A DNA stretch of 64,000 nucleotides. Origin: Podarcis cretensis. Taxonomy: Eukaryota. The notes beneath the pieces are model-generated. The model had not been told where the DNA came from and made no database searches. It worked only from the letters and a program-made list of their open reading frames with translations. The position numbers and the translations under genes are program-made. Below, one piece after another: positions 1,308-17,087 of the stretch (position 1 is its first letter; each line of letters opens with the position of its first letter). The stretch covers positions 15,438,001 to 15,502,000 of the forward strand of contig OX638165.1 in the NCBI GenBank assembly GCA_951804945.1, in the 5' to 3' direction.

Positions 1308-2582
1308 TGTTACGGAAAAATTCCGGGTGCTGAGTTTCCTTGCCACCCGGCTCGTCGGACAATGTCCGCGGGTCCTAGCGGAAAATGAGTTCAGCCGGAG
1401 ACAGGAGCAATGAACGGAGATCCCAAGTTTATTGCGCAACAGGTTCAATAAATGGCATTGAACCCCGAGAGTGGGGCGACATAAACTTTTAAAGGTTCCC
1501 TCCAGGTCCCAGAATACAGTGCAGAAAACGTCACATATACATCATAAAGAGGTGGGGTTACACGGATCAGCAGTACAAGAAATTGGGTGGTGGTTTACAC
1601 AAATCAAGGTGGGGGCTACAGAGATCAGCAGTATAATAAGGTAGGCAGAACAGAGATCAGCAGTATAATAAGGTAGGCAGAGCAGAGATCAGCAGTATAA
1701 TAAGGTAGGCAGAACAGAGATCAGCAGTATAATAAGGTAGGCAGAGCAGAGATCAGCAGTATAATAAGGTAGGCAGAGCAGAGATCAGCAGTATAATAAG
1801 GTAGGCAGAGCAGAGATTGCCCGGAGTGGTAGAGATATGCATAAACGTTTCCTGAGTACAGGTGATGGCAAGACAATGGCAGAGCCATGCATCGCCCATT
1901 ATCCGGTATTGTCCGGAGGAAGGGCTTGGCTGGACCATCCGACAGGATTAAGGTTTCCCTGAGTACGTGACCTGTCGGTTCGAGGATTATGGCGTCGAGG
2001 GTAGCATCATGGAGTCCGGAGGGAATCGAGTAGAATAACATTAAAATGGAGAAGATCGAAGCTTTGGCTGATTTTATATTATTTTCCGAAGTTTTCGGCT
2101 TCTTGCCGGTCAAGTGTATATTGTAAATTGAGAGCGGAAACAAATGGATACAATGTAACAGGAGTTTGACAGTTTTACGAGGTCGCTAGTTTCGGATCCA
2201 TTGTTGTAGCAGTGGGGGGCCGTCAACACCTTGTCAGGAGGTTAAATGAGGCGTGCAAGAGCTCCCTGAGCTAGCTCCTGCAGGGGAATGCACGTTCCTG
2301 ATTGGCTAAAACGCGGCCATTATGGTCAATGGGGAAACAGTATGATACGGTCTACTCATTAGAAATAGGGGAAACAAGGCTCAAGCGGAGGCTGTATATA
2401 GAAGGAAAGATATAAGGAAAAGATATTGTCTATAAAGTGGGGGGTATAGTGTGGTGCTTGTGCAACAGTGTGGGGGTTCAGGAGTCACGGCAGAGCTGGG
2501 TGCCACCGAGGTCATCGCCTCGGGCCCCGTAGTCACACGGAGGAGGGGTGAGGAAAGGTCCCCCCCCCCTCCTTCCGTATCA
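1308..2582 (-). repeat. ERV 3' LTR (1275 bp)
   Basis: Termini TGATACGG...CCGTAACA on the - strand; by eye identical to the 5' LTR except one C-run (10 vs 12); AATAAA at 1428-1433 (-); TTTAAAA TATA-like box ~1487-1493; preceded by PPT-like GAATGGGGGAC (2583-2593). Confidence 0.96.
1619..1817. repeat. 6 x 32-bp tandem repeat in U3 (copy in 5' LTR at 12460-12658)
   Basis: Unit CAGAGATCAGCAGTATAATAAGGTAGGCAGA(A/G) starting at 1619, 1651, 1683, 1715, 1747 and 1779. Confidence 0.95.
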
Positions 2583-2648
2583 GTCCCCCATTCGGAGATA
2601 GATTTGCATTAAAGTTCTGTAAGAACTTGCAAATCCTTTCTCCGCACC

Positions 2649-4700
2649 CTATACCCCCGTGATTTCGTACTCCCCTTCCCCTAGGTGTCTCATTTGTACA
2701 TATTCAGGGAATATAGAGGCACTGTGGGAGCGGGAATAAGCTCGGATAGGAAGAGGGGTGGATTGAGTAGGACAGCGGAGGAGAGAGCAACAAGGAGAGA
2801 CACAGTGTATAGTACAGCAGAGCATTGAGGCACAAAGGATAATAATAAGGGCAGTGAGCAGTATCACCTTGAGTAACTGTCGGAGCCATCCGAGCTTAGG
2901 CAACCATCCCCACAAGTCTATGTCGGATAGACCCTCATGTCGTATCTCATTTAGTTTTCCTGCCAGCTCGTGGATATTGTTCAAATGTCCGGTAATATTC
3001 AAAGTCTGATCAGTCACATATGTACAACACTCAGTGCCTATTAGGGCACAGGTCCCTCCTTGACTGGACAGGAGAAAGTCCGTCGCAATCCTGGTCTGCA
3101 AACTAAGTTGTCTCACCTCTGACAGCTCCGACATCAGAGAGTCGGTGATTTGGGTTGCCTCTTGCATGAATTTCAGAAGGATGTCGGTAAGCCGGAGGAT
3201 GTCCACATGATTAGAGCCGGCCCCATAGGCAGGGAAGAGTGCCCGACCGACAGTCTCTCCGTTGGCGGCGACATCGGATAAGTCCGACAGTCCTTTTTGT
3301 TCTCTTTTATTTCTCTGCCTCCCAGGGGGTAGGTGTGGGACTACTCTAATGCCGGGGACAATGTATCCTACGAAGCAAGATCCTGACATATGAGGGCTTA
3401 CCCAGGTATATGCGCGATGGCCACATACCCAAAACAGGCCGCTGAGGTAAGACTCCATCCTCCCGGAGGCAAAAGCTTGGAGCAACATGGAGTCGGTGGG
3501 CTGAGGTAGCCAAGTAGGTGGGTGTCCGATGACAGTGGCCCAAGCAAGGGTGAGATTTTGGAAGGTGTGGGACCCAGTCACATCGGTAAGAGTGACGTGA
3601 CCAGTGGGCAAAAGTTCCAAGTTGGAGGGGCAGGTACTGGACCCAATGAAAGTTCCCTCTCCTGTGAAAATGCGGCAAAGGGGCCCTTTTGTAGAGCCAG
3701 TGAGGTAGAGGTATTGGTGGGTCAAATTCAAGGCCGTTAAATTCCAAGAGGTGACATCTCCGGATCGGAACTGTTCAGTGGTCACGGGTACAGGAACAAG
3801 GGGGAGACTTTGTTGGAGGTGGCTGGGTGCATGTGCGCATATCCAGCATTCAGGATAGGGTGCCTCTTTAGCCACCTGGCCCAAGAGTTTGATGTAAGAG
3901 TTCTGTTCCCAAGAGGAGAGGAGGTCTTTTCCTGGGAGAGAGGGATCGTTGCCGAGCTGACGGGGTGCCGTGCCGAGTGGATGAAGAGGGTCCGTGGTAT
4001 TAAGGAGTCGCCTATCCTTGGCTACGCCCCCGCATCTCAAAGGTCCAACGTGATCCCAAGTGGGAGAGCGTGAGGGATGTACCGGATGATACCATCCTTC
4101 TAAATATTCTGCCCCTCTCCAGTCGTGGACGACTCCAAGATTCCAGAGGCAACAGAACCCTCTCAAGCAAAGTCCTTGTAGTTGGGGTTTCTGGGGTTCT
4201 GGAGTCATGGAGACACATTGGAACCCGAAAATTAGGTTGTCAGAGGGGTCTGTTGTGTCGGTGTAGGACGATGTGGCCCCCCTTTTTGTGACTTCAGTCC
4301 AATTTGGGTTCCTTGAGACTTCTCCGTTGCTATAAAGAAAATGGGTCCCGTTCTTACAACTAAGGCGGTAGTAGGAGCGGTCAAGGGTGACTGTTGCCGA
4401 CCCAATCCGGTGTAGGCGTCCATCTCTGATGAAAAGTTCCCAGTACTCGTTGCCAGTTAATCGGGGCACAAGGGAATGGCGTAGCAATGTCCGAGACTCA
4501 GGGAGGCAGAAATCAAAGTCCCCCATTCGGTCCGGGTTTGACTTCCCGCCGGTTTCGACTCGATGGTAGCCTAAAAGGTGGTAATCCGTAGTTAATCCGG
4601 TGCAATGGTCCGTTGGTGTGACTGAGGATTGAGTCAAAGTCCCGTAATCAAGGAAGAGGAAGAAGAAATACATGATCGGAGTCTGGGGACAGCAAGGCAT
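2649..4700 (-). CDS. env: env (gamma-type), intact, ~683 aa from the first ATG
   Basis: Hydrophobic N-terminus, CWIC, furin site RNKR, heptad/ISD-like LQTRIATDFLL, CALIGTECC (CX6CC), TM helix, cytoplasmic tail. Confidence 0.95.
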   Translation of the reverse strand: MPCCPQTPIMYFFFLFLDYGTLTQSSVTPTDHCTGLTTDYHLLGYHRVETGGKSNPDRMGDFDFCLPESRTLLRHSLVPRLTGNEYWELFIRDGRLHRIGSATVTLDRSYYRLSCKNGTHFLYSNGEVSRNPNWTEVTKRGATSSYTDTTDPSDNLIFGFQCVSMTPEPQKPQLQGLCLRGFCCLWNLGVVHDWRGAEYLEGWYHPVHPSRSPTWDHVGPLRCGGVAKDRRLLNTTDPLHPLGTAPRQLGNDPSLPGKDLLSSWEQNSYIKLLGQVAKEAPYPECWICAHAPSHLQQSLPLVPVPVTTEQFRSGDVTSWNLTALNLTHQYLYLTGSTKGPLCRIFTGEGTFIGSSTCPSNLELLPTGHVTLTDVTGSHTFQNLTLAWATVIGHPPTWLPQPTDSMLLQAFASGRMESYLSGLFWVCGHRAYTWVSPHMSGSCFVGYIVPGIRVVPHLPPGRQRNKREQKGLSDLSDVAANGETVGRALFPAYGAGSNHVDILRLTDILLKFMQEATQITDSLMSELSEVRQLSLQTRIATDFLLSSQGGTCALIGTECCTYVTDQTLNITGHLNNIHELAGKLNEIRHEGLSDIDLWGWLPKLGWLRQLLKVILLTALIIILCASMLCCTIHCVSPCCSLLRCPTQSTPLPIRAYSRSHSASIFPEYVQMRHLGEGEYEITGV

Positions 4701-4781
4701 GATCGAGGAGAAGAAATTATAAAGTGTGCTAATCACGGAGTCGTCAGGGCGTGTCGTCAAAGAAGCTGTTATCGAAGGTAC

Positions 4782-5316
4782 GCTGTCAAAGACGCTGTCA
4801 AAGCGAGCTGTCAAGCGCGCTGTCAGAGGTGTACTGTCAAAGGCGCTCTGTCAGAGGAGCCGTCAAAGCTAGCTGTCAAGGCGCGCTGTCAAAGGCGCGC
4901 TGTCAAAGGCGTGCTGTCAAAGGAGCTGTCAAAGGCGGTGTCCAAGCAGCTGTCAGAGGAGCTGTCAAAAGAGCTGTCAAAGGCGCGCTGTCAAAGGCGC
5001 GCTGTCAAAGGAGCTGTCAAAGGCGCGCTGTCGAAGGCGTGCTGTCAGAGGCGTGCTGTCAGAGGAGCTGTCAAAGCTAGCTGTCAAAGGCGCGCTGTCA
5101 AAGGCGCGCTGTCAAAGGAGCTGTCAAAGGCGCGCTGTCAGAGGAGCTGTCAAAGCTAGCTGTCAAAGGCGCGCTGTCAAAGGCGCGCTGTCAAAGGAGC
5201 TGCCAAAGGCGCTGTCCAAGCAGCTGTCAGAGGAGCTGTCAATAGAGCTGTCAAAGGCGCGCTGTCAAAGGCGCGCTGTCAAAGGAGCTGTCAAAGGCGC
5301 GCTGTCAAAGGCGCGC
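4782..5316. repeat. Array of ~41 degenerate 12-14 bp units (GCTGTCAAAGG(CGC/A)) between pol and env
   Basis: About 41 GCTGTC-type cores counted by eye; reads (CCTTTGACAGC)n on the viral sense strand. Confidence 0.95.
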
Positions 5317-8300
5317 TTTAAGCGTAGTTTGATGGCCGTGGGATCTGGGATGATCTCAGACGTCCAGATGGGTGGATCTGTGCTCGATCCGGTCTGTTGG
5401 GCCCGATTCTGGCCCCGGTCTGCTGGTCCGGTCTGTTGGGCCCGATTCTGGCCCCGATCTGCTGGTCCGGTCTGTTGGGCCCGATTCTGGCCCCGATCTG
5501 CTGGTCCGGTCTGTTGGGCCCGATTCTGGCCCCGATCTGCTGGTCCGGTCTGTTGGTCGTCGTTGTCGTCGATATATGAGGTTGGTGGAGTAGGAGGGGT
5601 CGAAAAAGTGAAGTCCTCGCCGAGGTCTCCCTCCGTCTCTTGAGGGGGGGGCGTCGACTTACACCTGGTATGGTGTAACCATGAGTGCTTCTCACCTATT
5701 TTCACGGCGGTTGGCGATGTGAGGAGAATTTGGTAGGGACCTTCCCACGCTGGCTGAAGGAGTGCCCTCTGATAGACTTTGACAAGGATCCAATCGCCTG
5801 GTTTGAAGGAGTGTGCCTGGACGTCGGTGGGTAGATTTTGTCCTTCGATGGCCGCGTAGTGGTGGAGACGTTGAAGCTGTGTCTGGAGCTGAATGACATA
5901 ATTAGTGAGTTCTGCTTCCCCCAGTTCAAGTTCTGAGAGGGGAAACAGAGTGTTGTAAATGGGAGGGGGTCTCCCAAATAGGAGTTCGTATGGGGATAGT
6001 TTCAATGGTCCAGTTGGGGCACTTCGTATGTTATGGAGAACTAGTGGAAGGGCATTTACCCATTTTAGTCCAGTGAGTTTGCAGAGCTTTCCTAGTTGTG
6101 TTTTGATTTCTTGGTTCATGCGCTCTACTTGGCCGGAAGATTGTGGGTGATAGGGCGTATGAAGGTCCCATTTTATTTGTAAGGCCTTGGCCACTAATTG
6201 TACTATTTGAGCGGTGAAATGAGTTCCTCTGTCACTGTCTAGTCGACGGGGAACCCCAAATCGGGGAATAATGTCGTGTAGGAGGGCTCTGGCCACTACA
6301 GAGGCGGTAGGTTTTCTACAGGGGAATCCCTCTACCCAGGAGGAGAGTTTATCCACTATGATCAGAGCGTGTTTGAAACCCTGACAGTGCGGTAAGTCAA
6401 TAAAATCCAGCTGTAGACTTTCAAAGGGAACGAATGCCCACAGTCTGGCTCCTGGTGGTGCTCTAGGTTGTCGTTTGGGATTAAAGGAGCTACAGGTAAC
6501 ACAGTTCTTTGACGCTGCTGTGGCCGCTACCGCAAGTCCAGGAGCGTACCAGGATCTTTTAACGTGCTCTATCAGTCTCCCTTTTCCCCAGTGTGTACGT
6601 TGATGGAGGACCCTCACCAATTTTGGAACCCAAGCTTTTGGAAGGACAGTCCTTCCGTCGGGGAGAGTCCAAACGTCATTTTGTTCGATCGCACCCACAG
6701 AACGCCAGAGAGTCTTTTCCTCCTCGGGGGCTTCTTTGTAAATTTGTGTGGGATCAATATGAAGTGGGATTTGTAAGGCTTGAAATTCCGATTCATTGTT
6801 TGGGAGGCGGAGCGCGGCTGATTGGGCTGCCTTATCAGCTCGCCTGTTACCCCTTGAGACGGGGTCTCTACCCCGGGTATGCGCTTTGCAATGGACTACT
6901 GCGATTGCGGTAGGTAGATGGATAGCGGTCAGTAGTCTCTCTACTAAAGCGGAATGTGAAATTTTGGAGCCTGCAGCGGTTAAGAAGCCTCTTTGTAACC
7001 AGATCTGGCCAGTTGTATGGACTAATCCGAAACAGTACTTACTGTCCGTGTAGATTGTAGTTCGCTTGCCTTCACTGATCTCGCAGGCCCGTATGAGCGC
7101 TATTAGTTCTGCAGCTTGGGCGCTATATTGTGGGTTTATCGGATTTGATTCTATTACTTCGAAGTCGGTGACTACAGCATATCCTGTTTTCCTTTCCCCG
7201 TCCACAACCTTTGAACTGCCGTCTGTATAAAGTATTAAATCTGGGTTTTCTAATGGTAGGTGGTCTAGGTCTTCTCTGGGTTTCTCGGCTTGACGGACTA
7301 TGGTGGCGCAGTCATGGTGTGGGGTTCCATCATCAGGGAGAGGGAGGAGGGTGGCTGGGTTGAGGGAGTTAACCCTCTTTATAGTGACATTTGATGGGGT
7401 CAATAGAAGGGCCTCATACTTGTTTAATCGAGAGTTTGAAAAGTGATGGCTGCCTCTGAGGGTTAATAGGGTGGAGACGGAATGGGGCACATGGATGATG
7501 ATTTCATGTCCCAGAACCGTTTCCTGAGCCTTTTCGAGGAGGACCGCTGCGGCAGCTATGGCTCTTAGGCAGCTTACTGCGCCTTTCGCGGTGGTGTCTA
7601 ATTGAAGACTGTAATATGCTATAGGTCTCTCTTGGTCTCGGAAAGACTGTGTCAATACCCCAGAAGCTACTCCCATTTGCTCATGGATAAACAAGTTAAA
7701 TGGGATCCTGTAGTCGGGTAAGCCTAGCGCAGGGGCAGATCTTAGTTCTCGCTTTAAACGTTCAAAAGATTTGTATGCGTCTTCCTCCCAAACTAGGGTG
7801 TCTGGATGATCTTGGCGGGTCATAGCGGAGAGGGGTTTTGTTATTTCGCTGTATCCCGCGATCCAGGCTCTGCAGAAGCCAGCCATACCTAAAAATCCCC
7901 GAAGTTGTCGTTTAGTTTTTGGAAGGGGAATCTTAGTGACTGCTTCTATTCTATCGGTCGCTAAGCTTCGGGTGCCTACTCCTAGGATATGCCCGAGGTA
8001 CTTTACTTCTTGCTTGCAGTATTGCAACTTTTTTGGTGACACCTTATGTCCTTTTCTGGCTAGTTCTGCAAGGAGATGTTTGGTGTCTATCTTACATGCT
8101 TCCTCATTGGTGGAACAGAGAAGGAGGTCATCCACGTAAAGCAAGAGGGTGGAGTTTGCAGGGAGCTGGACATCCTGTAAATCTTGGTGCAAGATGGCCG
8201 AAAATATTGCAGGTGATTCCACGTATCCCTGGGGTAACCTCGTCCAGGTTAATTGACTGGGTCCCCAGGTAAAGGCGAAAAGAAATTGGCTGGCTGGGTC

Positions 8301-9176
8301 CAGGGGGATACTAAAGAAGGCGGAGCACAAGTCTGCGGCAGTGTACCATTTGGTTTCTGCTGGAATGGCGTTCAAGAGGGAATTGGGATTGCCGACTACT
8401 GGATGGCGGGGTATTACAAATTGATTCACCAGTCTCAGATCCTGGACAAAACGGTACCGGACTGGGGCCCCTTCTGTCGATGGTTTCTTTACTGGAAGTA
8501 CTGGGGTATTGCAAGGGGATGCGCAAGGGACTAGGATGCCCTTCTCGAGGAAGTCCTCTATCATAGGAGTTAGTCCCTCTATGGCTTCTTTAGGTAGGGG
8601 ATATTGCTTTGTGCACGGAAAGGGTAGGTCTGTTCTATAGACGATTTTGACTGGAGCTGCCGACAACAAAAGACCTACTGAAGTTGACTCAGTGCCCCAT
8701 AGAGAAGAGGGCAATTCATTTTCCAGTTCTGGAGGGAGTTCCGGGAACTGCCTGTCTGTTTTGGCCTCTTCAATTATTCCCTGGAAGGCGGGGATGGATT
8801 CCTCTGGCATATGTAAGTAGATGCCTTCCTCAGAACATTTAATGGTGGCATTTAATTTGCAAAGTAGGTCCCTTCCTAAGAGGTTCACCGGGCTGTTGGT
8901 TAAGAGGAAGGTATGTTCCGCTAGTAGGGGTCCGAGGGTAACTTTAGTCGGACGCGATAGCGGGCAAGTGCGGGGTATCCCATCCAGACCCATGACTTTT
9001 CTGGTCTCCGGACTTGGTTCCAGGTGGCTATCCGTTAAGGTGGAGTAAGTGGCTCCTGTGTCCAATAAACATTGATATGGATGGCCATCTATCTCAATGG
9101 TACAGAATGGTTCTTCGGAGGATAACGTTAAGATTGGGCAGATAGTTTGGGTTTGGTTGGGATCCCCTTCTAATTG
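5265..9176 (-). CDS. pol: pro-pol (protease, RT, RNase H, integrase), in frame with gag after a single TGA
   Basis: LLDTGA protease site, LPQG and YVDD RT motifs, YTDGS RNase H, HHCC and D-D-E integrase motifs, WEGPY; no internal stops. Confidence 0.96.
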   Translation of the reverse strand, partial: QLEGDPNQTQTICPILTLSSEEPFCTIEIDGHPYQCLLDTGATYSTLTDSHLEPSPETRKVMGLDGIPRTCPLSRPTKVTLGPLLAEHTFLLTNSPVNLLGRDLLCKLNATIKCSEEGIYLHMPEESIPAFQGIIEEAKTDRQFPELPPELENELPSSLWGTESTSVGLLLSAAPVKIVYRTDLPFPCTKQYPLPKEAIEGLTPMIEDFLEKGILVPCASPCNTPVLPVKKPSTEGAPVRYRFVQDLRLVNQFVIPRHPVVGNPNSLLNAIPAETKWYTAADLCSAFFSIPLDPASQFLFAFTWGPSQLTWTRLPQGYVESPAIFSAILHQDLQDVQLPANSTLLLYVDDLLLCSTNEEACKIDTKHLLAELARKGHKVSPKKLQYCKQEVKYLGHILGVGTRSLATDRIEAVTKIPLPKTKRQLRGFLGMAGFCRAWIAGYSEITKPLSAMTRQDHPDTLVWEEDAYKSFERLKRELRSAPALGLPDYRIPFNLFIHEQMGVASGVLTQSFRDQERPIAYYSLQLDTTAKGAVSCLRAIAAAAVLLEKAQETVLGHEIIIHVPHSVSTLLTLRGSHHFSNSRLNKYEALLLTPSNVTIKRVNSLNPATLLPLPDDGTPHHDCATIVRQAEKPREDLDHLPLENPDLILYTDGSSKVVDGERKTGYAVVTDFEVIESNPINPQYSAQAAELIALIRACEISEGKRTTIYTDSKYCFGLVHTTGQIWLQRGFLTAAGSKISHSALVERLLTAIHLPTAIAVVHCKAHTRGRDPVSRGNRRADKAAQSAALRLPNNESEFQALQIPLHIDPTQIYKEAPEEEKTLWRSVGAIEQNDVWTLPDGRTVLPKAWVPKLVRVLHQRTHWGKGRLIEHVKRSWYAPGLAVAATAASKNCVTCSSFNPKRQPRAPPGARLWAFVPFESLQLDFIDLPHCQGFKHALIIVDKLSSWVEGFPCRKPTASVVARALLHDIIPRFGVPRRLDSDRGTHFTAQIVQLVAKALQIKWDLHTPYHPQSSGQVERMNQEIKTQLGKLCKLTGLKWVNALPLVLHNIRSAPTGPLKLSPYELLFGRPPPIYNTLFPLSELELGEAELTNYVIQLQTQLQRLHHYAAIEGQNLPTDVQAHSFKPGDWILVKVYQRALLQPAWEGPYQILLTSPTAVKIGEKHSWLHHTRCKSTPPPQETEGDLGEDFTFSTPPTPPTSYIDDNDDQQTGPADRGQNRAQQTGPADRGQNRAQQTGPADRGQNRAQQTGPADRGQNRAQQTGSSTDPPIWTSEIIPDPTAIKLRLKRAFDSAPLTAPLTARL
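5389..5556. repeat. 4.3 x 39-bp tandem repeat in the integrase C-terminal tail (QQTGPADRGQNRA)
   Basis: Units start at 5389, 5428, 5467, 5506 and 5545; in frame with pol. Confidence 0.95.
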
Positions 9177-10631
9177 TCAATAACTCCCTTGATCGTCCGG
9201 AGGGGGTTGGTTAGGGGGGTGTAAGGGAGGTGCTGTAGCGTTGGCCCACGGGCGGGGGGATATAGTGATCGCGGGCATTTGAGCCTTTGGTCCTGGTAAG
9301 GGTCTTTGGGTTTGAGCAGGTATAGTTGGAGGTGGCGGTGGTTTGTGGGGGGCAGAGGCTGGCTGAGGGTTGTAAGTGATGGGCGGTGGGTTTCCATATC
9401 CATAGGTTGCATTTGGATGTGGTGTCCCGTAGATCGTGTTATTGAGGTACGGGCAAAACCGCCTAATGTGGCCTTCTTCTTGGCAATAAAAGCATCCGGT
9501 GGTGGTAGGTCCCCAAGGCCTATGGGGATTGGGATTGGGGTTTCCTCCTCCTCGGATTCCCCTCCCTCGGTTGAAGCCCCTGCCCCTACTAGGGTTTAAC
9601 TCCATACTAAGGGCTAGGACTTGTTCGGTTTCAGGTTTGGGGTCCCTTTTCTTCCTCTCATCTCGTGAGTTATAGACTGATTTAGCGATGGAGAGGATTT
9701 CGCTGATACTTTTCCCATCGTATCCTATCTGTAAATTTAAGGCTTTTCTAATATCGGGACAGGCTTGATCTTTAAAGAAGCCTTTCACTATGACTTCGTG
9801 CTGAGAGTTCTCTGGATCAATTCCTCCCCAGGTCTTAATGGCGGATACAAGTCTCGTATAGTAATCGGACGGGTGTTCATTTGCTCCTTGTAGCACAGTC
9901 TGGACTTTCGTCCAGTTAACGGTGCGTTGTCCGGCGGCCTTGATGCCGTCTAAGATTGCCTTTTTAAACAAATTTAAGCACCAGATTCCGTTTGTGGTAT
10001 TATAATCCCATGTCGGTTCGGTGCGCAAGCATTGGGCTGTGAGCGCCGCTAACCCTACCGGGCGTCCTGTCTGATAATCCGGGAGTTCAATCATTTCTCC
10101 GGCTTTGGCTAAAATATCTGCCTTCTCAGCCTCGTTGAAAAGTGCGTTCAGGAGAACGTGAACGTCTGGCCAGGTCGGCTTATGGGTTGAAAATATTGCG
10201 CTGACCTGACGGTGACATTTATCTGGGTCGTCCCTCAATGATGGCATTTGGTTCGACCAAGTTACCAGGTCTGCCGTATAGAATGGTTGGTGGGTATATA
10301 TCATTCGGGGGGCTCCGTCCGGCTGCAACGGTGGGATTGGCAGAGCCCTTAAGGGCATCTGGACGGCCGTAGAGTCCAATTGCCTGGACGTCCCTGGGGT
10401 CTCTTCGGGTCTTTCTAAAGGGAGTGAGGTTCCTAGGGTAGCATTTTGTACCTCCCTGGCTAAGGAGTTGATGTTTTCCGTGATAGCATTCTGTATCTCC
10501 CTTGCTCGTGTCAAAGGGCTGATGTTCTCTGAGGTCGTACCCTGAACTTCTCTAGCCGGTGGGAGGGAGCTAAGGTTTTCCGAGGTAGCATTTTGCATTC
10601 CTTTGGCTCGTTGCCTAGTTATGATTTGACT
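9177..10631 (-). CDS. gag: gag 3' part (spacer repeats, CA, NC, Pro-rich tail)
   Basis: MHR-like VLQGANEHPSDYYTRL, single CCHC knuckle CFYCQEEGHIRRFC; ends at TGA 9177-9179; frame is open back to the G-run at 10632-10641. Confidence 0.92.
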   Translation of the reverse strand, partial: SQIITRQRAKGMQNATSENLSSLPPAREVQGTTSENISPLTRAREIQNAITENINSLAREVQNATLGTSLPLERPEETPGTSRQLDSTAVQMPLRALPIPPLQPDGAPRMIYTHQPFYTADLVTWSNQMPSLRDDPDKCHRQVSAIFSTHKPTWPDVHVLLNALFNEAEKADILAKAGEMIELPDYQTGRPVGLAALTAQCLRTEPTWDYNTTNGIWCLNLFKKAILDGIKAAGQRTVNWTKVQTVLQGANEHPSDYYTRLVSAIKTWGGIDPENSQHEVIVKGFFKDQACPDIRKALNLQIGYDGKSISEILSIAKSVYNSRDERKKRDPKPETEQVLALSMELNPSRGRGFNRGRGIRGGGNPNPNPHRPWGPTTTGCFYCQEEGHIRRFCPYLNNTIYGTPHPNATYGYGNPPPITYNPQPASAPHKPPPPPTIPAQTQRPLPGPKAQMPAITISPRPWANATAPPLHPPNQPPPDDQGSY

Positions 10632-11185
10632 CCCCCCCCCCGTGCCCCTTGTTCCTCTGCCTCTTCGCTGTTATCATTATCCTGGTCATCACTTGGGGCG
10701 GGTGGAACAGTTTGTCTGTAGTAAAAGGGGATAAGCGTTTGTTCCACGGAGTCGTCTATAGGGTGTCCTTCGTAAGGGGGGGGCAGAGGAGACCTCCCAT
10801 GATTTAGGATGGGCAGTTGGTAGGTCGCTCCTCCCTTTGCAACGTGGAGCAGTCCTCGGACGGCTTCGAAAGCGGCTAAATACCCTAGTTGACGGGGTTT
10901 TTCTTCCATCAAGTAGTTTCTTAGATGCCTCAGGCGGTCTTCATTAAAGGAGCCCCCTGTTGGCCACCGTAACTCGGGCTTTGCAGAGGCAGTCCCGGCC
11001 GGCCAGGTTTCTTTACATAGATCTTCTAATTTCTGCTTCGACAGCAAGTTGTGCCCGGGGATAGACTTCCAATAAGAGATGACGAATTCAAGAGGGGAGT
11101 CGGGGTCCCTCTGGGATTCAGATGGCTTCCTTGAAGCCTTCTTCCCGGAGTGAGCCCGCTCATGTTTAGAAGCTTGGGTACCCAT
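10619..11185 (-). CDS. gag: gag 5' part (MA plus p12-like region); frameshifted relative to the 3' part at a G10 run
   Basis: MGTQASK myristoylation-type start, gamma-like MA (LC..TWP, WP..GSF), PPPY late domain. Confidence 0.88.
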   Translation of the reverse strand: MGTQASKHERAHSGKKASRKPSESQRDPDSPLEFVISYWKSIPGHNLLSKQKLEDLCKETWPAGTASAKPELRWPTGGSFNEDRLRHLRNYLMEEKPRQLGYLAAFEAVRGLLHVAKGGATYQLPILNHGRSPLPPPYEGHPIDDSVEQTLIPFYYRQTVPPAPSDDQDNDNSEEAEEQGARGGGVKS

Positions 11186-12128
11186 TTTATTCACGCGTGT
11201 CTGGGTAAAGAGAGGGAGAGGGGGTCGTTAGGGTTTATTTGGGTCTTGGGGATTATCAACAGTTTCCTAACGGGGTTTGAGAGCTCTTTCTACTTATTTC
11301 CTATTCTCTTCCTTTCCTACTTCTTCTTCAATTTCCTGGGGTTTCCTTTCCACTCTGCCAAGTCCCACCCAGTCCTCCCTGGACTATCCCTCCTGGCAAC
11401 CTCCTACCTATCGTCACAAACTTGGGAAAAGGGGGCCCTACTGAACGCCCGCGCCGTGCGGTGCCAGATCGGGTGGTCCCTTGATAGAGTTTTGAACGGA
11501 AAATCCCCCTTGCTTTCGGAAGCGGGCTCACGCACGATTCACGTGTTACGTGGCCCGACCGGTGCGGCTGGGATTGATACAGAAAGTCAGACCCCTTCCT
11601 GCCCCCTCCGTAAGGGCGCTCGGGAAGTTCGGAAGAAGAATTCCAGACCCTTGCTTCAACTGAGAGAGTCCGTTGCGGGGAGTCGGCTATCTTTTCAAGC
11701 CGGGTCTCTCCGTCTTATTTTCGGACCCCCAATTGGTGCAGCTGACTGGAGGGTTTGAGAGGAGAAAGAGATAGAGCTCAGAACCCCCTTTTGGGTTGAG
11801 CAGTGGTCCCCGTTCTCTCTCGCGACGGACCAAGGGAAAAGGTAAGAAGGATCGATAGAGAGGAGGGCAGAGAATTCAGTTGCCAGGAGATTCCACCCCC
11901 TTACCACCAGTGCACTGGGTTTCTCTACTATACTCACGCGTCTTCAACGTTGATCCCGGGATCGATGAATATGCCGGCCGGATTCCCTTTGCTCCTGGGC
12001 TGAACCCTGGGACGTTCGATTACCGCCCGGAAGATGGCCGGGGGTCCTAAGGATCTTCCCAGGCAAAACGGCCTGGTGCCGGCTGAAGATTTCGGGGCCC
12101 CCGGTCAGCAACACGGGAGAACCGCCCT

Positions 12129-12146
12129 GCCCCACGTTGGGCGCCA
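12129..12146 (-). promoter_or_regulatory. Primer-binding site complementary to tRNA-Lys1,2 (CUU)
   Basis: TGGCGCCCAACGTGGGGC, 2 nt after the 5' LTR end. Confidence 0.95.
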
Positions 12147-13170
12147 AATGTTACGGAAAAATTCCGGGTGCTGAGTTTCCTTGCCACCCGGCTCGTCGGA
12201 CAATGTCCGCGGGTCCTAGCGGAAAATGAGTTCAGCCGGAGACAGGAGCAATGAACGGAGATCCCAAGTTTATTGCGCAACAGGTTCAATAAATGGCATT
12301 GAACCCCGAGAGTGGGGCGACATAAACTTTTAAAGGTTCCCTCCAGGTCCCAGAATACAGTGCAGAAAACGTCACATATACATCATAAAGAGGTGGGGTT
12401 ACACGGATCAGCAGTACAAGAAATTGGGTGGTGGTTTACACAAATCAAGGTGGGGGCTACAGAGATCAGCAGTATAATAAGGTAGGCAGAACAGAGATCA
12501 GCAGTATAATAAGGTAGGCAGAGCAGAGATCAGCAGTATAATAAGGTAGGCAGAACAGAGATCAGCAGTATAATAAGGTAGGCAGAGCAGAGATCAGCAG
12601 TATAATAAGGTAGGCAGAGCAGAGATCAGCAGTATAATAAGGTAGGCAGAGCAGAGATTGCCCGGAGTGGTAGAGATATGCATAAACGTTTCCTGAGTAC
12701 AGGTGATGGCAAGACAATGGCAGAGCCATGCATCGCCCATTATCCGGTATTGTCCGGAGGAAGGGCTTGGCTGGACCATCCGACAGGATTAAGGTTTCCC
12801 TGAGTACGTGACCTGTCGGTTCGAGGATTATGGCGTCGAGGGTAGCATCATGGAGTCCGGAGGGAATCGAGTAGAATAACATTAAAATGGAGAAGATCGA
12901 AGCTTTGGCTGATTTTATATTATTTTCCGAAGTTTTCGGCTTCTTGCCGGTCAAGTGTATATTGTAAATTGAGAGCGGAAACAAATGGATACAATGTAAC
13001 AGGAGTTTGACAGTTTTACGAGGTCGCTAGTTTCGGATCCATTGTTGTAGCAGTGGGGGGCCGTCAACACCTTGTCAGGAGGTTAAATGAGGCGTGCAAG
13101 AGCTCCCTGAGCTAGCTCCTGCAGGGGAATGCACGTTCCTGATTGGCTAAAACGCGGCCATTATGGTCAA

Positions 13171-14944
13171 ATCAAATCAAATCAAATCAAAACTTTATTA
13201 GCAAAGCCAACAGGCCACAGCTAGACAAGAATTAAAAATAAAAATAAAAATAAGAATAAAAAGAAGAAAAGAACAGGCAAAAGGGGGTCCGTCAGATGAA
13301 CAAGTCTGTCACTCAGATGGTGGCCCTCAATTTCACAGCTCTCTCGATGTACCTCGCGACCTTCTCTGTTATCTGACTATCCGTATCAGATAAGAGAAAA
13401 TACAGTGTAATGTCTGGTGAACGGCCGGGGTTGGAGAGAATAAGTGGAGTAATAATCTCATTCCTTAGGTCTTTGTAAATAGGGCAAGATAGAAGGACAT
13501 GGGACACTGTTTCCGTGTTACCATCTCCACATGGGCAGAGTCGTTTTTCAAATGGAGTCTTTTGGTAACGACCTTCGAGTACGGCAGAAGGAAGAACATC
13601 CCATCTAGCCAATGTAAAGGCACGTCTGTATTTTGGGATGGTTAATTTAGACAAATATGAGGCTGGGGAGTCAAAATGAGAAGGGGGAAAGTAGGTATAC
13701 CATGGGCACAGTTTCTTTAAGATGGTCAGGTTGTTTTGCCGTTCAATGTCTTTCAGGCGCTGGCCAATTAGACTCTTTGCTTTAATGAGGCCCATTGATA
13801 GTAGGGACTGTGAATGCAAACCGCATGTAAGGAGTTTTTGATGCACAGTTTTGAACCACTTGCTTTTGTGAGAATCTTGCATTACTAGAGGCAGTAGACC
13901 AGGTGGGTTTAGATTAAGACGAAGCCAGTAGTTGAATGTTCTTTGCCAAGTCTGAGTTTCTACAGATGGAAGGCAGGCCTCGAGTCGTAATGCTGCGTTT
14001 GGAACACAGGGGGGGACGCCGAATATCTGCCTTAGAAATTTAGACTGAACAGTTTCAAGACTGGAGCAGTGGTTCCCCGTCCAGATTTGTGCCCCATACA
14101 GTAACTGCGCCAAAGGTTTTGCTTGAAAAACTTCAAGGGCTGCTGGGATGTATCTGCCCCCCTTTGTGTAAAAGAAGCGGGACAGCATCTTAATACTTTG
14201 AGCTGCTTTTTCTTTGGCACATTTTTGATGGACATCCCAGGACCCGGTCGACTGGAACACGATACCCAGATATTTGAAGGCTTTAACCTGTTCAATTGTC
14301 TGGTTATCCATCCTCCAGCTGTACTGTCTGTGTTTCCTTGCAAAAACCATAGTTTTGGTTTTCTGATAGTTTATTGCCAGTTGCTCTCTCCTACAGTATG
14401 CTGAAAATTCACCTATGAGCCTATTTAAGCCTATTCTTGTTCGAGATAGGAGTATCGCATCATCAGCATACAAAAGTACTGATATTGATTTGTCAGCCAG
14501 TTTGGGGGCGTGGAAGTCCGGAGATGACAAACAGTTAACCATATCATTGATGTAAAAGTTAAATAGAACTGGGGCCAGGATGCAACCTTGCTTGACCCCC
14601 TTGCTGACAGGAACTGGTCCTATAAGATGGCCATTTAACGAAGTTCTTACATGCAGCACCGTGTCTTTATATAGACAGCTGATCAGGAATAATAGTCTTT
14701 TGTCTATACTTGATGTGCTCAATTTATCCCAGAGTCTTGCACGTGGAATTGAATCGAAGGCAGCCTTTAGATCGATAAAGGCTGCATATAGCACCCCGCG
14801 GGATTTTTTGGCATATTTATCAATTAAATAGGCTAGGGTGAAGCAGTGGTCTATGGTGGATCTGCCTTGCCTGAAACCCGCTTGCTCTTCCGCTAGAATA
14901 GCTTCAGTTTCCAGCCAGCTAGTTAGCTTAATATAAAGATGTTT
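13171..14944 (-). mobile_element. 5'-truncated non-LTR retrotransposon (RTE-X-like) inserted in the 5' LTR
   Basis: 16-bp TSD CGGCCATTATGGTCAA (13155-13170 / 14945-14960); open RT frame (QAGFR, FIDLKAAFDS, GVKQG, LLYADD) with C-terminal CPCG..HVLLSC; AATAAA then (TTTGA)n tail. Clade assignment is tentative. Confidence 0.92.
13313..14944 (-). CDS. LINE ORF2 fragment (RT plus C-terminal zinc knuckle), uninterrupted from the truncation point to the stop
   Basis: The 493-aa ORF extends in frame upstream (KHLYIKLTSWLETEAILAEEQAGFRQGRSTIDH) to the junction. Confidence 0.88.
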   Translation of the reverse strand, partial: KHLYIKLTSWLETEAILAEEQAGFRQGRSTIDHCFTLAYLIDKYAKKSRGVLYAAFIDLKAAFDSIPRARLWDKLSTSSIDKRLLFLISCLYKDTVLHVRTSLNGHLIGPVPVSKGVKQGCILAPVLFNFYINDMVNCLSSPDFHAPKLADKSISVLLYADDAILLSRTRIGLNRLIGEFSAYCRREQLAINYQKTKTMVFARKHRQYSWRMDNQTIEQVKAFKYLGIVFQSTGSWDVHQKCAKEKAAQSIKMLSRFFYTKGGRYIPAALEVFQAKPLAQLLYGAQIWTGNHCSSLETVQSKFLRQIFGVPPCVPNAALRLEACLPSVETQTWQRTFNYWLRLNLNPPGLLPLVMQDSHKSKWFKTVHQKLLTCGLHSQSLLSMGLIKAKSLIGQRLKDIERQNNLTILKKLCPWYTYFPPSHFDSPASYLSKLTIPKYRRAFTLARWDVLPSAVLEGRYQKTPFEKRLCPCGDGNTETVSHVLLSCPIYKDLRNEIITPLILSNPGRSPDITLYFLLSDTDSQITEKVARYIERAVKLRATI

Positions 14945-16059
14945 CGGCCATTATGGTCAATGGGGAAACAGTATGATACGGTCTACTCATTAGAAATAGG
15001 GGAAACAAGGCTCAAGCGGAGGCTGTATATAGAAGGAAAGATATAAGGAAAAGATATTGTCTATAAAGTGGGGGGTATAGTGTGGTGCTTGTGCAACAGT
15101 GTGGGGGTTCAGGAGTCACGGCAGAGCTGGGTGCCACCGAGGTCATCGCCTCGGGCCCCGTAGTCACACGGAGGAGGGGTGAGGAAAGGTCCCCCCCCCC
15201 CCTCCTTCCGTATCATCACACAGGATCGCTTCCAAATAAGTTGTATTTAAAGCAGGTCCACTGACACGAATTAAGCTAGCCATGTCCATTAATTTCAACC
15301 GGTCTACTCTATAAGTAGGGCTAACTTTTGCAAAAGACCCAGACCTTTTGAGTAAAACTGTGGGATCTGCTAACACAAGATAACCACCAGCTTGGACAGC
15401 TTTAAAGAGCTGTTCAGAAAGATGCTTAGGAGATTGAGGTAATTTTAATCCATATTAGTATTTTAACTATTGTATGTTTTAAAAGTAGTGTTGTGATTTT
15501 TCCCCCTTGCATTTTACTGCTTCAACTTTTGTAAACCGCTTTGAGGGTGTTTAATTTTTTGTAGTATTCTTTTTTTACAACCAAACAGTGTATAAATTTT
15601 ATGAAATAAATAAACAATAAAAGCTCAGACAAGTTGCTGGAAGGCAAGGTAATGCGCTAACTGCAGGATCACTGTGCCAGTATCACTGAATACCAGTTAT
15701 TGGGAGGCAAGAGTGGGAGAGGGCTGTTGTCCTCCTCTCATAAGACAAGCCCTGATGGATCAGGCCCATTGCCCATCTAATCCAGCATCCTTGTTCTCAT
15801 TCTGGACAATAGATGCCAATGGGACGCTTGAAAGCAGGACCTGTGTGCCACGGCGACTCTCCTCAGCAATCGCTAGAAACTTAACAGTCTCCAACAGTGG
15901 AGGGGAGAACATAGCCATTGTGGCTGGTAGCCACAGATTAGCAGCCTTCTGTTCCATGAATTTGCCAAATCCCTTCTTAAAGCCATCCAAGATGGCGGCC
16001 ATCAGGTCATGTTGTCCCGCCATCTGGTTAACCTCTTTCCCCCTCCCCTTCTCCTGCAG

Positions 16060-16129
16060 GCATCAAGCTCTTTGGGAAAGATACATGGGGACGCTGAAAG
16101 CTTGCCTTCTGAAGATGTACCACGACTGA
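16060..16129 (+). CDS. FIBP: FIBP last coding exon
   Basis: Polypyrimidine tract and cag|G; encodes (R)[22 protein letters not shown], the FIBP C-terminus; AATAAA at 16371-16376. Confidence 0.93.
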
Positions 16130-17087
16130 GCTCTGCACTTAGTTCTTTATTTTTTTTGGGGGGGGGGGGGGAGGAAATCACCTTTAGGTGCAACAAGTTC
16201 CAGGCAAGAGAGAACCCGGAGCCCTTCTGCAGGGGAGACGCTTGCTGGCTGCAGCTGTCCTGCACAGACACACACAGTTGTGTGTCCACACACGGCGCGA
16301 CCACCAAGTGTCACTCTTTTCTCTCTACATCTTCAGCAATTAAGGGTTAAAACTGTTGTTGGCGTTGAGAAATAAAGGAGGAGTCCTCACAGATGTTGCT
16401 TGATTTGTCTGATTCTGGATGGCCTGACTGTAAATAGGCCCCACGGCAAATCTATCTATTTTTCCTTCTCTTGTTTTCTTGTTTTCCCCATGTTGAGTTA
16501 CGTTCTCCATGTTTCCACAACCATTTGCAATATTTAGTTGCAAACTGTTCGCTAGCATTATGATGTAACTTTCTCCTCATCTCCAATGTTTGTATGCAAT
16601 TCTGCCAAACCCCCACATTTTTGCAAAGCGATTTTTTTGCTAATATAATACAGTTGCCGGGTTTTGGTTTTTATTTTCATGAACCCATGCACGCTTTCCC
16701 TCAGTCAGTGCATTTTTTATACACATAACTTGTCTGGACATTGCAAAATTTGGAGAGGTGCAGATTTCAAAGGCTGCCTGTGTTTCGCTTCTCATATAGT
16801 TTTGGAAAGTGGAGGATTGGATAGGTTCACCTTTTAAATGTAAACTGAATCATAGTCCCTCTCCCCGACTCCCACATTTCCTACTTAAGAGCATTTGATC
16901 TGAGGTAGCTTGAATTTTCTCTTCAGCACATCAAACCGGTGTGCATCTTTAGTACATAGGAAGCTGCCCAGAGCCAGACGCTTGGTGCATGTAGCTCAGT
17001 GCTGTGAACCCATGGGGCAGGGGGCAGATGCCTCCTTCTAGACCTTTCCTCCTGGCCTTTGGGACTCTCCCCAAGCCACCTTGTGTC

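Follow-up and report, generated by a model that had tools for sequence, protein, structure and literature searches.

A young class I endogenous retrovirus antisense to FIBP in Podarcis cretensis, and its lacertid family

The window analysed here is a stretch of 64,000 nucleotides from the genome of the lizard Podarcis cretensis (contig OX638165.1, positions 15,438,001 to 15,502,000), and it carries a 13.9-kb class I provirus (1308-15215, minus strand) in the last intron of the host gene FIBP, to which it is antisense. With reasonably good confidence, this provirus is interpreted as a young endogenous retrovirus (ERV) that is likely polymorphic and that belongs to a lacertid family likely spread by infection; its gag is broken, and a younger long interspersed element (LINE) sits in its 5' long terminal repeat (LTR). 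A much bolder interpretation, in which a lacertid retrovirus clade is invading germ lines today with a structure-free leaky UGA of tobamovirus type, a splice-acceptor array that can expand and copy-by-copy shutdown at a run of G, is as a whole rather improbable.

Age and probable insertional polymorphism

The provirus has the layout of a class I ERV. On the minus strand, its TG...CA ends and target duplication enclose the 5' LTR (15215-12149), primer-binding site (PBS, 12146-12129), leader, gag, pro-pol, env, polypurine tract and 3' LTR (2582-1308), and the Pfam domains Gag_p30, zinc knuckle, RVP, RVT_1, RNase_H, rve, MLVIN_C and TLV_coat are found within it. Alignment of the two LTRs gives no substitutions in 1,275 columns, where divergence of several percent was to be expected if the preliminary description of this stretch had been wrong to call the insertion recent. 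The 95% upper bound on its age is 0.6, 1.2 or 2.4 million years at 2, 1 or 0.5e-9 per site and year, rates that are assumed and not measured, and the claim of recency stands. Beyond this, the LTRs differ by 2 bp in a C run and by a 1,790-bp gap, made up of a LINE fragment of 1,774 bp and a single copy of the 16-bp duplication of its target; with the LINE included, the 5' LTR is 3,067 bp long. The preliminary description had named the C run as the only difference, which is not confirmed, since it had overlooked the LINE.

The copies of the target duplication that flank the provirus (1304-1307 on the left and 15216-15219 on the right) differ by one mismatch, at the base adjoining the end of U5. 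Both ends were read in 22 elements of the family: 12 show perfect duplications of 4 bp and four perfect ones of 5 bp, four (the window included) have one mismatch, and two are unclear. The unprocessed viral dinucleotide would account for the odd base in all four mismatched cases, and the mismatch in the window is likely a by-product of integration and not a sign of age. The coexistence of 4-bp and 5-bp duplications within one provirus family is a separate observation.

The insertion is likely absent from some individuals. Four sequencing runs (three samples from one study) share 69-75% of the sampled words of the window, and a single run from a second organism shares 48%; contigs, labelled X1, X2 and X4 below, were compared over 12700-16300 for a filled or an empty site. 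The X1 contig (15186-15611) crosses the LTR end with no difference and 0 gaps, the X2 contig stops exactly at 15216, as expected at branching alleles, and the X4 contig aligns from 15334 to 15216 and then continues into 62 unlike letters. Counted back on the left flank, these 62 letters end at about 1242, inside a T run (1241-1250) that is a natural place for a contig to break. For X5, no piece among those listed covers the junction, which carries no weight either way. The contigs of X1, X2 and X4 are consistent with a filled site, a mixed one and an empty one, respectively, and lend weight to the earlier suggestion that the insertion is possibly polymorphic. Several points weigh against this interpretation: the X1 contig has 30 letters on the LTR side, one short of the 31-letter rule for bridging; the loose-end letters of X4 were not read directly; and all three samples come from one study, in which X1 may be the source sample of the assembly.

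Spread of the family and state of this copy

An exact U5-PBS pattern occurs 24 times in the genome, and a control pattern 0 times, which provides the genome-wide copy count that had been proposed at the outset. All 24 copies were retrieved: 12 are close copies (window included), seven belong to a sister lineage and five are truncated or decayed. The two LTRs differ by 0 substitutions in six of the 11 other close copies and by 1-5 in the remaining five. Eleven close copies retain env, with an open frame in 10 of them, and one close copy with near-identical LTRs has a large deletion spanning pol and env.

Pairwise ratios of replacement to synonymous change (dN/dS) against the window are below 0.5 in env and pol and range somewhat higher in gag: 0.12-0.37 for the surface subunit of Env (16 of 16 copies), 0-0.32 for its transmembrane subunit (14 of 16, with two identical), 0.02-0.47 for protease, reverse transcriptase (RT) and RNase H (13 of 16, with two partial and one saturated), 0-0.10 for integrase (15 of 16, with one partial) and 0.09-0.60 for the capsid-nucleocapsid part of gag (10 of 16, with six saturated). 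Synonymous changes exceed replacement changes per site even between copies that are only 1-3% apart. Because env has been under selection, the family has likely spread by recent infection, although these pairs all share the branch of the window and bear on past, not present, selection. It is also conceivable, if distinctly less probable, that the family is no longer infectious and that a few source elements gave rise to its copies through complementation or through retrotransposition within cells, with selection on env a relic of an extinct exogenous ancestor. The broken gag in nine of the 12 close copies, the pol-env deletion between near-identical LTRs and the lack of evidence for particles or somatic insertions would all suit such a history; the open env in almost every close copy that keeps the gene, and the excess of synonymous change at such low divergence, argue instead for spread by infection.

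The sister lineage has a mixed relationship to the window. In gag-pol its synonymous divergence (dS) is 1.6-3.6 or undefined through saturation, whereas in env dS is 0.18-0.35 and LTR identity is about 90%, and because of this discrepancy it is likely that env and the LTR were swapped between two viral backbones. A third lineage is represented by 15 matches at 68-69% identity in the protease region, 11 of which have pol frames of 1,286-1,310 codons. It too is young (LTRs at least 99.7% alike in three of three examined). This separate member of the clade has an LTR distinct from the others, a duplication of 263 bp in the leader and a smaller version of the repeat array described below. Several proviruses and solo LTRs of the clade are clustered near the contig end at 126.3-127.8 Mb of contig C2, and many others also lie near contig ends. 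The genome further holds dozens of elements with 26-28% protease identity and a single open frame some 1,847 codons long; these probably form a young family of Ty3/gypsy type, a guess based on frame length and a weak match.

The copy in the window is more damaged than first described, and to call it near replication-competent, as the preliminary description did, was an overstatement. Its gag lies in two overlapping minus-strand frames. The 5' frame is open over 10619-11227 and, read from its ATG (10619-11185), begins with MG, contains a PPPY late motif and stops after 188 codons, without a Pfam match; the 3' frame (9177-10670, 497 codons) encodes the capsid domain Gag_p30 and a zinc knuckle. 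A run of G (10632-10641), variable in length among copies, lies inside the overlap, in agreement with the single homopolymer frameshift that had been noted. The pro-pol frame (5265-9176, minus strand; 1,303 open codons with protease, the RT motif YVDD, RNase H and integrase with MLVIN_C) and the env frame (2649-4850, 733 codons) are fully open, also as reported. However, since Pol would be made by in-frame readthrough at the stop codon that ends gag, a break upstream of that stop should abolish Gag-Pol together with Gag, and env should be the sole gene that can be expressed from this copy, whose 5' LTR is moreover interrupted by the LINE. For 2600-12148, no RNA data set with matching sequence was listed, which speaks neither for nor against expression.

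Breaks of this kind recur in the family. Read from the gag ATG, three of the 12 close copies are full length, eight stop at 188-190 codons at the same run, and one stops at 166 codons at another G run. The run has five lengths among the 11 of 15 copies in which the pattern was found, and the U3 C run differs between the two LTRs in five of eight copies read. Long-read assembly is known to be weak at homopolymers of 10 or more, and the gag run may in part be an assembly error. That the breaks are wholly of this origin, and that the window and most sister copies are in truth open in gag, seems unlikely. Assembly error would explain the convergence of eight stops on one run and a ninth on another, as well as the low dN/dS of gag past the break. 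The LTR C run, however, has its assembled length in the independent X1 contig (0 gaps over 15186-15611) and a shorter length in other contigs from all four runs, so that variation in run length is real at least in the LTR, and at homopolymer runs RT is documented to cause frameshifts (PMC3185545). Selection on gag downstream of the breaks indicates that they are terminal events and not the mark of an inherited defective lineage. Slippage at the G run would disable many copies at or after integration, with Pol lost as well, and the copies disabled in gag may be those best tolerated in the germ line.

The LINE in the U3 of the 5' LTR (13171-14944, minus strand, in the orientation of the virus) is a 5'-truncated member of a family with two open reading frames (ORFs), and has a (TTTGA)n tail, a 545-codon RT frame and a 16-bp target duplication. 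It separates the promoter-side part of the LTR (12149-13170), which is identical to 1308-2329, from the distal part of U3 (14945-15215). The genome holds at least 40 close relatives of it: each of the 40 matches that were scored is 99-100% identical over a 1,741-bp query, one other copy is identical over 1,769 bases, and an exact 3' tag is present at 43 genome sites. Longer copies of about 5.5 kb contain two ORFs, an APE endonuclease, an RT, a C-terminal Cys/His motif and an (ATTTG)n tail, and the family is also found in contigs of the second organism. As a young copy inside an LTR, 99-100% alike to its genome copies, the LINE is younger than the integration of the provirus, and was inserted by an active family. 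All listed loose contig ends at 14944 run on into full-length LINE copies.

The LINE occupies distal U3, about 840 bp upstream of a TATA-like box, and leaves a set of 32-bp repeats and R joined to the genome. The 5' U3 of a retrovirus is not transcribed, and a LINE landing there after integration would therefore not be transferred to progeny RNA, while the core of the promoter may still work. A young LINE is present in two of the 12 close proviruses. Targeting of proviruses by one LINE family is not claimed, since the LINE in the second copy belongs to a different family, with no blastn match. This other LINE is about 3.1 kb long, has a frame of 1,019 codons and lies antisense within the pol of a sister provirus (contig C12, about 1.69-1.71 Mb).

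Signals at the gag-pol junction and before env

The family likely uses a leaky gag UGA to make its enzymes. In the window, the TGA that ends gag (9177-9179) is in frame with pro-pol and followed by CAA TTA, and gag and pro-pol share one frame; the resulting junction UGA-CAA-UUA (9171-9179, minus strand) would be a readthrough context of type I, as in tobamoviruses (PMC3542737; PMC4132726). Across the 30 best protease loci, which span 67-100% protease-region identity and represent about four to six lineages, not 30 events, the junction reads UGA-CAA-UUA in 14, UGA-CAA-CUA in eight and UGA-CUA-CUA in six. The remaining two loci are decayed, and one of these reads UGA-CAA-GUA, out of register. 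Thus, CAA-YUA, an instance of the type I motif CAR-YYA, follows the stop in 22 of the 30 loci, and the type II sequence CUA-CUA in six, whereas all 12 contigs of gammaretroviruses and of walleye dermal sarcoma virus (WDSV) type that were read have UAG at this position.

The motif CAR-YYA works with UGA as well as UAG, and gamma- and epsilonretroviruses are classed as type III (PMC3542737). In a mammalian reporter UGA-CAAUUA gives about 15% readthrough, and CUAUUA gives more (PMC4132726). The closest parallels are tobacco mosaic virus (UAG-CAA-UUA) and the insect virus known as Providence virus (UAG-CAA-CUA; PMC3542737), with which the window shares the six bases after the stop and the lack of any detected downstream structure. 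It differs from known type I elements in having UGA in place of UAG and in belonging to a vertebrate retrovirus, whereas the reviews, in the text available, assign type I to plant viruses and one insect virus. A 2026 review, in its available parts, lists only types II and III for animal viruses and describes epsilonretroviral readthrough as experimentally untested (PMC13517186). In all three lineages, the folding of the 120 nt that begin at the stop does not exceed that of shuffled sequences (z of +1.1, -0.2 and -0.9), in minimum free energy (MFE) predictions that are blind to pseudoknots and long-range pairings. The six bases that follow the gag UGA (CAA-UUA in the window; in sister lineages, CAA-CUA or CUA-CUA) would be what lets ribosomes leak past it, with no need of the gammaretroviral pseudoknot.

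Conservation of these six bases is only modest evidence, and the type I assignment leans for this reason on the match to a motif known beforehand. YUA is found in all three lineages at 10 of 117 conserved Leu codons (8.5%), which is the approximate chance of its occurrence here, and near-identical copies make up 12 of the 30 junction loci. There is a small chance that the context reflects protein constraint only, through a Gln-Leu at the protease cleavage site, and that readthrough depends on a distant RNA structure. Every in-frame junction encodes a residue followed by Leu after the stop, as such a constraint would require, and a 3' stem-loop is a frequent requirement of type II sites (PMC3159437). 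Protein constraint would not, however, explain why the third-position A is retained when Gln is replaced by Leu (CAA to CUA), and again when Leu becomes Val (GUA) in a decayed copy, nor why every junction variant is a published readthrough motif.

Between pol and env is an array of about 41 units of 12-14 bp with the core TTTGACAG (4743-5317, minus strand), which contains the pol stop codon. Its units share a single orientation, and it fills the stretch between the end of pol and a point shortly ahead of the env ATG. The exact core occurs 26 times in the array and 0 times in the 8,976 other internal bases of the provirus. The array has 21-46 units in 10 close copies and 11-54 in four sister-lineage copies, and persists with 10-16 units and different spacers in three of three copies of the third lineage, where pol is 70% and env 50% identical; two decayed copies have 0 and 2 units. 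None of the 16 arrays contains an ATG. Direct repeats tend to be deleted by reverse transcription, and the persistence of the array despite this tendency, with its core kept while spacers changed, points to selection that maintains it.

As judged from sequence features, a function as redundant acceptors for env splicing is somewhat favoured. Env RNA would be spliced from the leader donor to any one of the many acceptors, an idea that suits an array placed directly before the env ATG, without internal ATGs and in one orientation, with units that each combine a branch-point-like TTGAC with an AG. A second strong acceptor-like site at 5933, kept in sister lineages, counts against this, but splicing there would place two ATGs ahead of that of env. 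The array may instead be a DNA enhancer bound by homeodomain proteins or an element for RNA export or stability, which is a less probable but serious possibility. In its favour, each AG is preceded by only three to four pyrimidines, the site at 5933 is the stronger acceptor-like sequence, and the core fits the TALE-homeodomain consensus (TGACAG, the MEIS/TGIF/PKNOX motif).

Host gene, remaining features and placement

FIBP is a single gene in the genome search. Its plus-strand exons flanking the provirus include one at 473-559 (PF05427 positions 274-302, E 3e-7), the penultimate coding exon at 967-1064 with a donor GT at 1065 (positions 303-334, E 1.5e-6, match span 967-1062) and the last coding exon at 16060-16129 (positions 341-360, E 7e-5, match span 16061-16126). 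The last intron is 14,995 bp long, or 1,083 bp after subtraction of the provirus and one target duplication, which bears out the earlier account of an antisense provirus enlarging this intron from about 1.1 kb to about 15 kb. AATAAA is present on the FIBP-sense strand at 1447-1452, 12288-12293 and 13237-13260, in both LTRs and the LINE tail, and these signals could lead to early polyadenylation in the last intron.

The 3' LTR (1308-2582, minus strand, 1,275 bp) contains an AATAAA (1433-1428), a TATA-like TTTAAAA (1493-1487) and six 32-bp repeats (1619-1817), to which poly(A) and promoter roles are attributed on the basis of position and motif. A 154-codon U3 frame was considered as an accessory gene and dismissed: it has no Pfam match, ends in the 32-bp repeats, and is broken in six of 15 copies and absent in one of 15. 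Adjoining the 3' LTR is the polypurine tract (2583-2600, minus strand). The env gene (2649-4700, minus strand; 683 codons from the ATG at 4700; TLV_coat E 9e-11) is of gamma type, with CWIC, an RRNKR-like furin site, an immunosuppressive domain (ISD) and CX6CC, and the best PDB match of its product is syncytin-1. A 39-bp in-frame repeat (13 residues) lies in the integrase tail (5388-5556), with a similar 36-bp counterpart in the third lineage. The long leader (11186-12128, minus strand) has one donor-like GGTAAG at about 11904, the presumed splice donor, and the PBS (12129-12146, minus strand) corresponds to the 3' end of the host's tRNA-Lys(CTT), on which the virus would prime. Two of the six loci scanned, out of 32 pattern matches to the PBS, are tRNA-Lys(CTT) genes.

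Podarcis and Zootoca supply the closest proteins (67-94% identity), followed by those of turtle, opossum, snake and fish ERVs (50-54%). In two quick RT trees (73 and 43 rows chosen from matches), with support from the Shimodaira-Hasegawa-like approximate likelihood ratio test (SH-aLRT) only, the sequence falls into a lacertid-only clade (98 and 99 SH-aLRT) that groups with gamma- and epsilonretroviruses, and not with class II or spuma elements. It lies outside the gammaretrovirus clade (98 SH-aLRT), which holds contigs of reticuloendotheliosis virus (REV) and murine leukaemia virus (MLV) type. This tree, a check proposed in the preliminary description, also sets the clade away from contigs read as WDSV or walleye epidermal hyperplasia virus (WEHV) and as SSSV (salmon swim bladder sarcoma virus), names inferred from the junctions UAG-GAU and, following PMC13517186, UGA-AGA, respectively. 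Backbone support is weak (80-87 SH-aLRT), which weighs against a finer placement. As far as the data go, this is an epsilon-related class I virus with a gamma-type env.

With gammaretroviruses such as MLV, koala retrovirus and REV, the window shares Gag_p30, MLVIN_C, PPPY, a one-frame gag-pol, a covalent, gamma-type Env (CXXC, ISD, CX6CC) and mostly 4-bp target duplications. In contrast, its RT is only 45-49% identical to theirs, its junction is UGA-CAA-UUA and not UAG-G, with no strong fold after the stop in MFE predictions, its LTR is 1.2 kb long and its primer is tRNA-Lys. From the epsilonretroviruses WDSV and WEHV, so named by inference, it differs in an RT of 38-43% identity on a separate branch, a gamma-type Env and the absence of an accessory ORF with a Pfam match. 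SSSV and the zebrafish endogenous retrovirus (ZFERV) have similarly simple genomes of about 11 kb with UGA at the gag-pol junction, but in the contexts UGA-AGA and UGA-CGA (PMC13517186), and the contig read as SSSV has an RT of 37% identity on a separate branch and no pol-env array. Also comparable are the epsilon-related class I ERVs of bioRxiv 10.1101/2021.11.23.469661, whose Pol is outside the gammaretroviruses, whose env is of gamma type with ISD and CX6CC, and which have no accessory genes and show pol-env recombination. In the available text their hosts are fish and amphibians, whereas the present clade is confined to lacertids, with its nearest outside relatives in turtle, opossum and fish at 50-54%.

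Squamate retroviruses had been called poorly characterised in the preliminary description, and this applies only in part. Wang and Han (2023) described 412 invading ERVs (ERVi) in 123 vertebrates, with 12 units in five squamates; 36 squamate ERVi are catalogued in these five species, and genomes of Lacerta, Podarcis and Zootoca were screened (PMC10435555). No element with the lacertid codes Lagi, Pmur or Zviv is present in 14 supplement files of that study, nor among 28 of its 36 squamate rows. The family resembles ERVi in its squamate host, its open pol and env, and insertional polymorphism, here seen as filled, branching and run-off contigs. The RT of Scro.ERVi.2, compared by eye, has DLCSAF and QGY.ESP motifs in common with the window (PMC10435555). 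The copy in the window departs from ERVi in gag, which is intact in that definition and full length in three of 12 close copies but not in the window; and where strict LTR identity is required, the window has 0 substitutions but also the 2-bp run difference and the LINE (PMC10435555). No published account of the lacertid clade or of CARYYA in a retrovirus was found in a search to which subscription journals, bioRxiv supplements and Repbase/Dfam were external. Recently invading squamate ERVs are therefore already known, while the lacertid clade and its cis signals are apparently undescribed.

Ongoing germ-line invasion has been documented in few reptiles, and in no lacertid in the available parts of one survey, even though wall lizards are widely used as models in the field and in genomics. 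An insertion that segregates would provide both a marker and a system in which endogenisation can be watched. A family that has moved among UGA-CAA-UUA, UGA-CAA-CUA and UGA-CUA-CUA would link types I and II in nature and makes the question of readthrough accessible to short reporters, and in the array between pol and env, a cis element that is conserved yet variable in length, a role in splicing lends itself to a clear test. The copy itself is defective; what is of lasting interest is the apparently undescribed lacertid clade to which it belongs, active until recently and marked by unusual cis signals.

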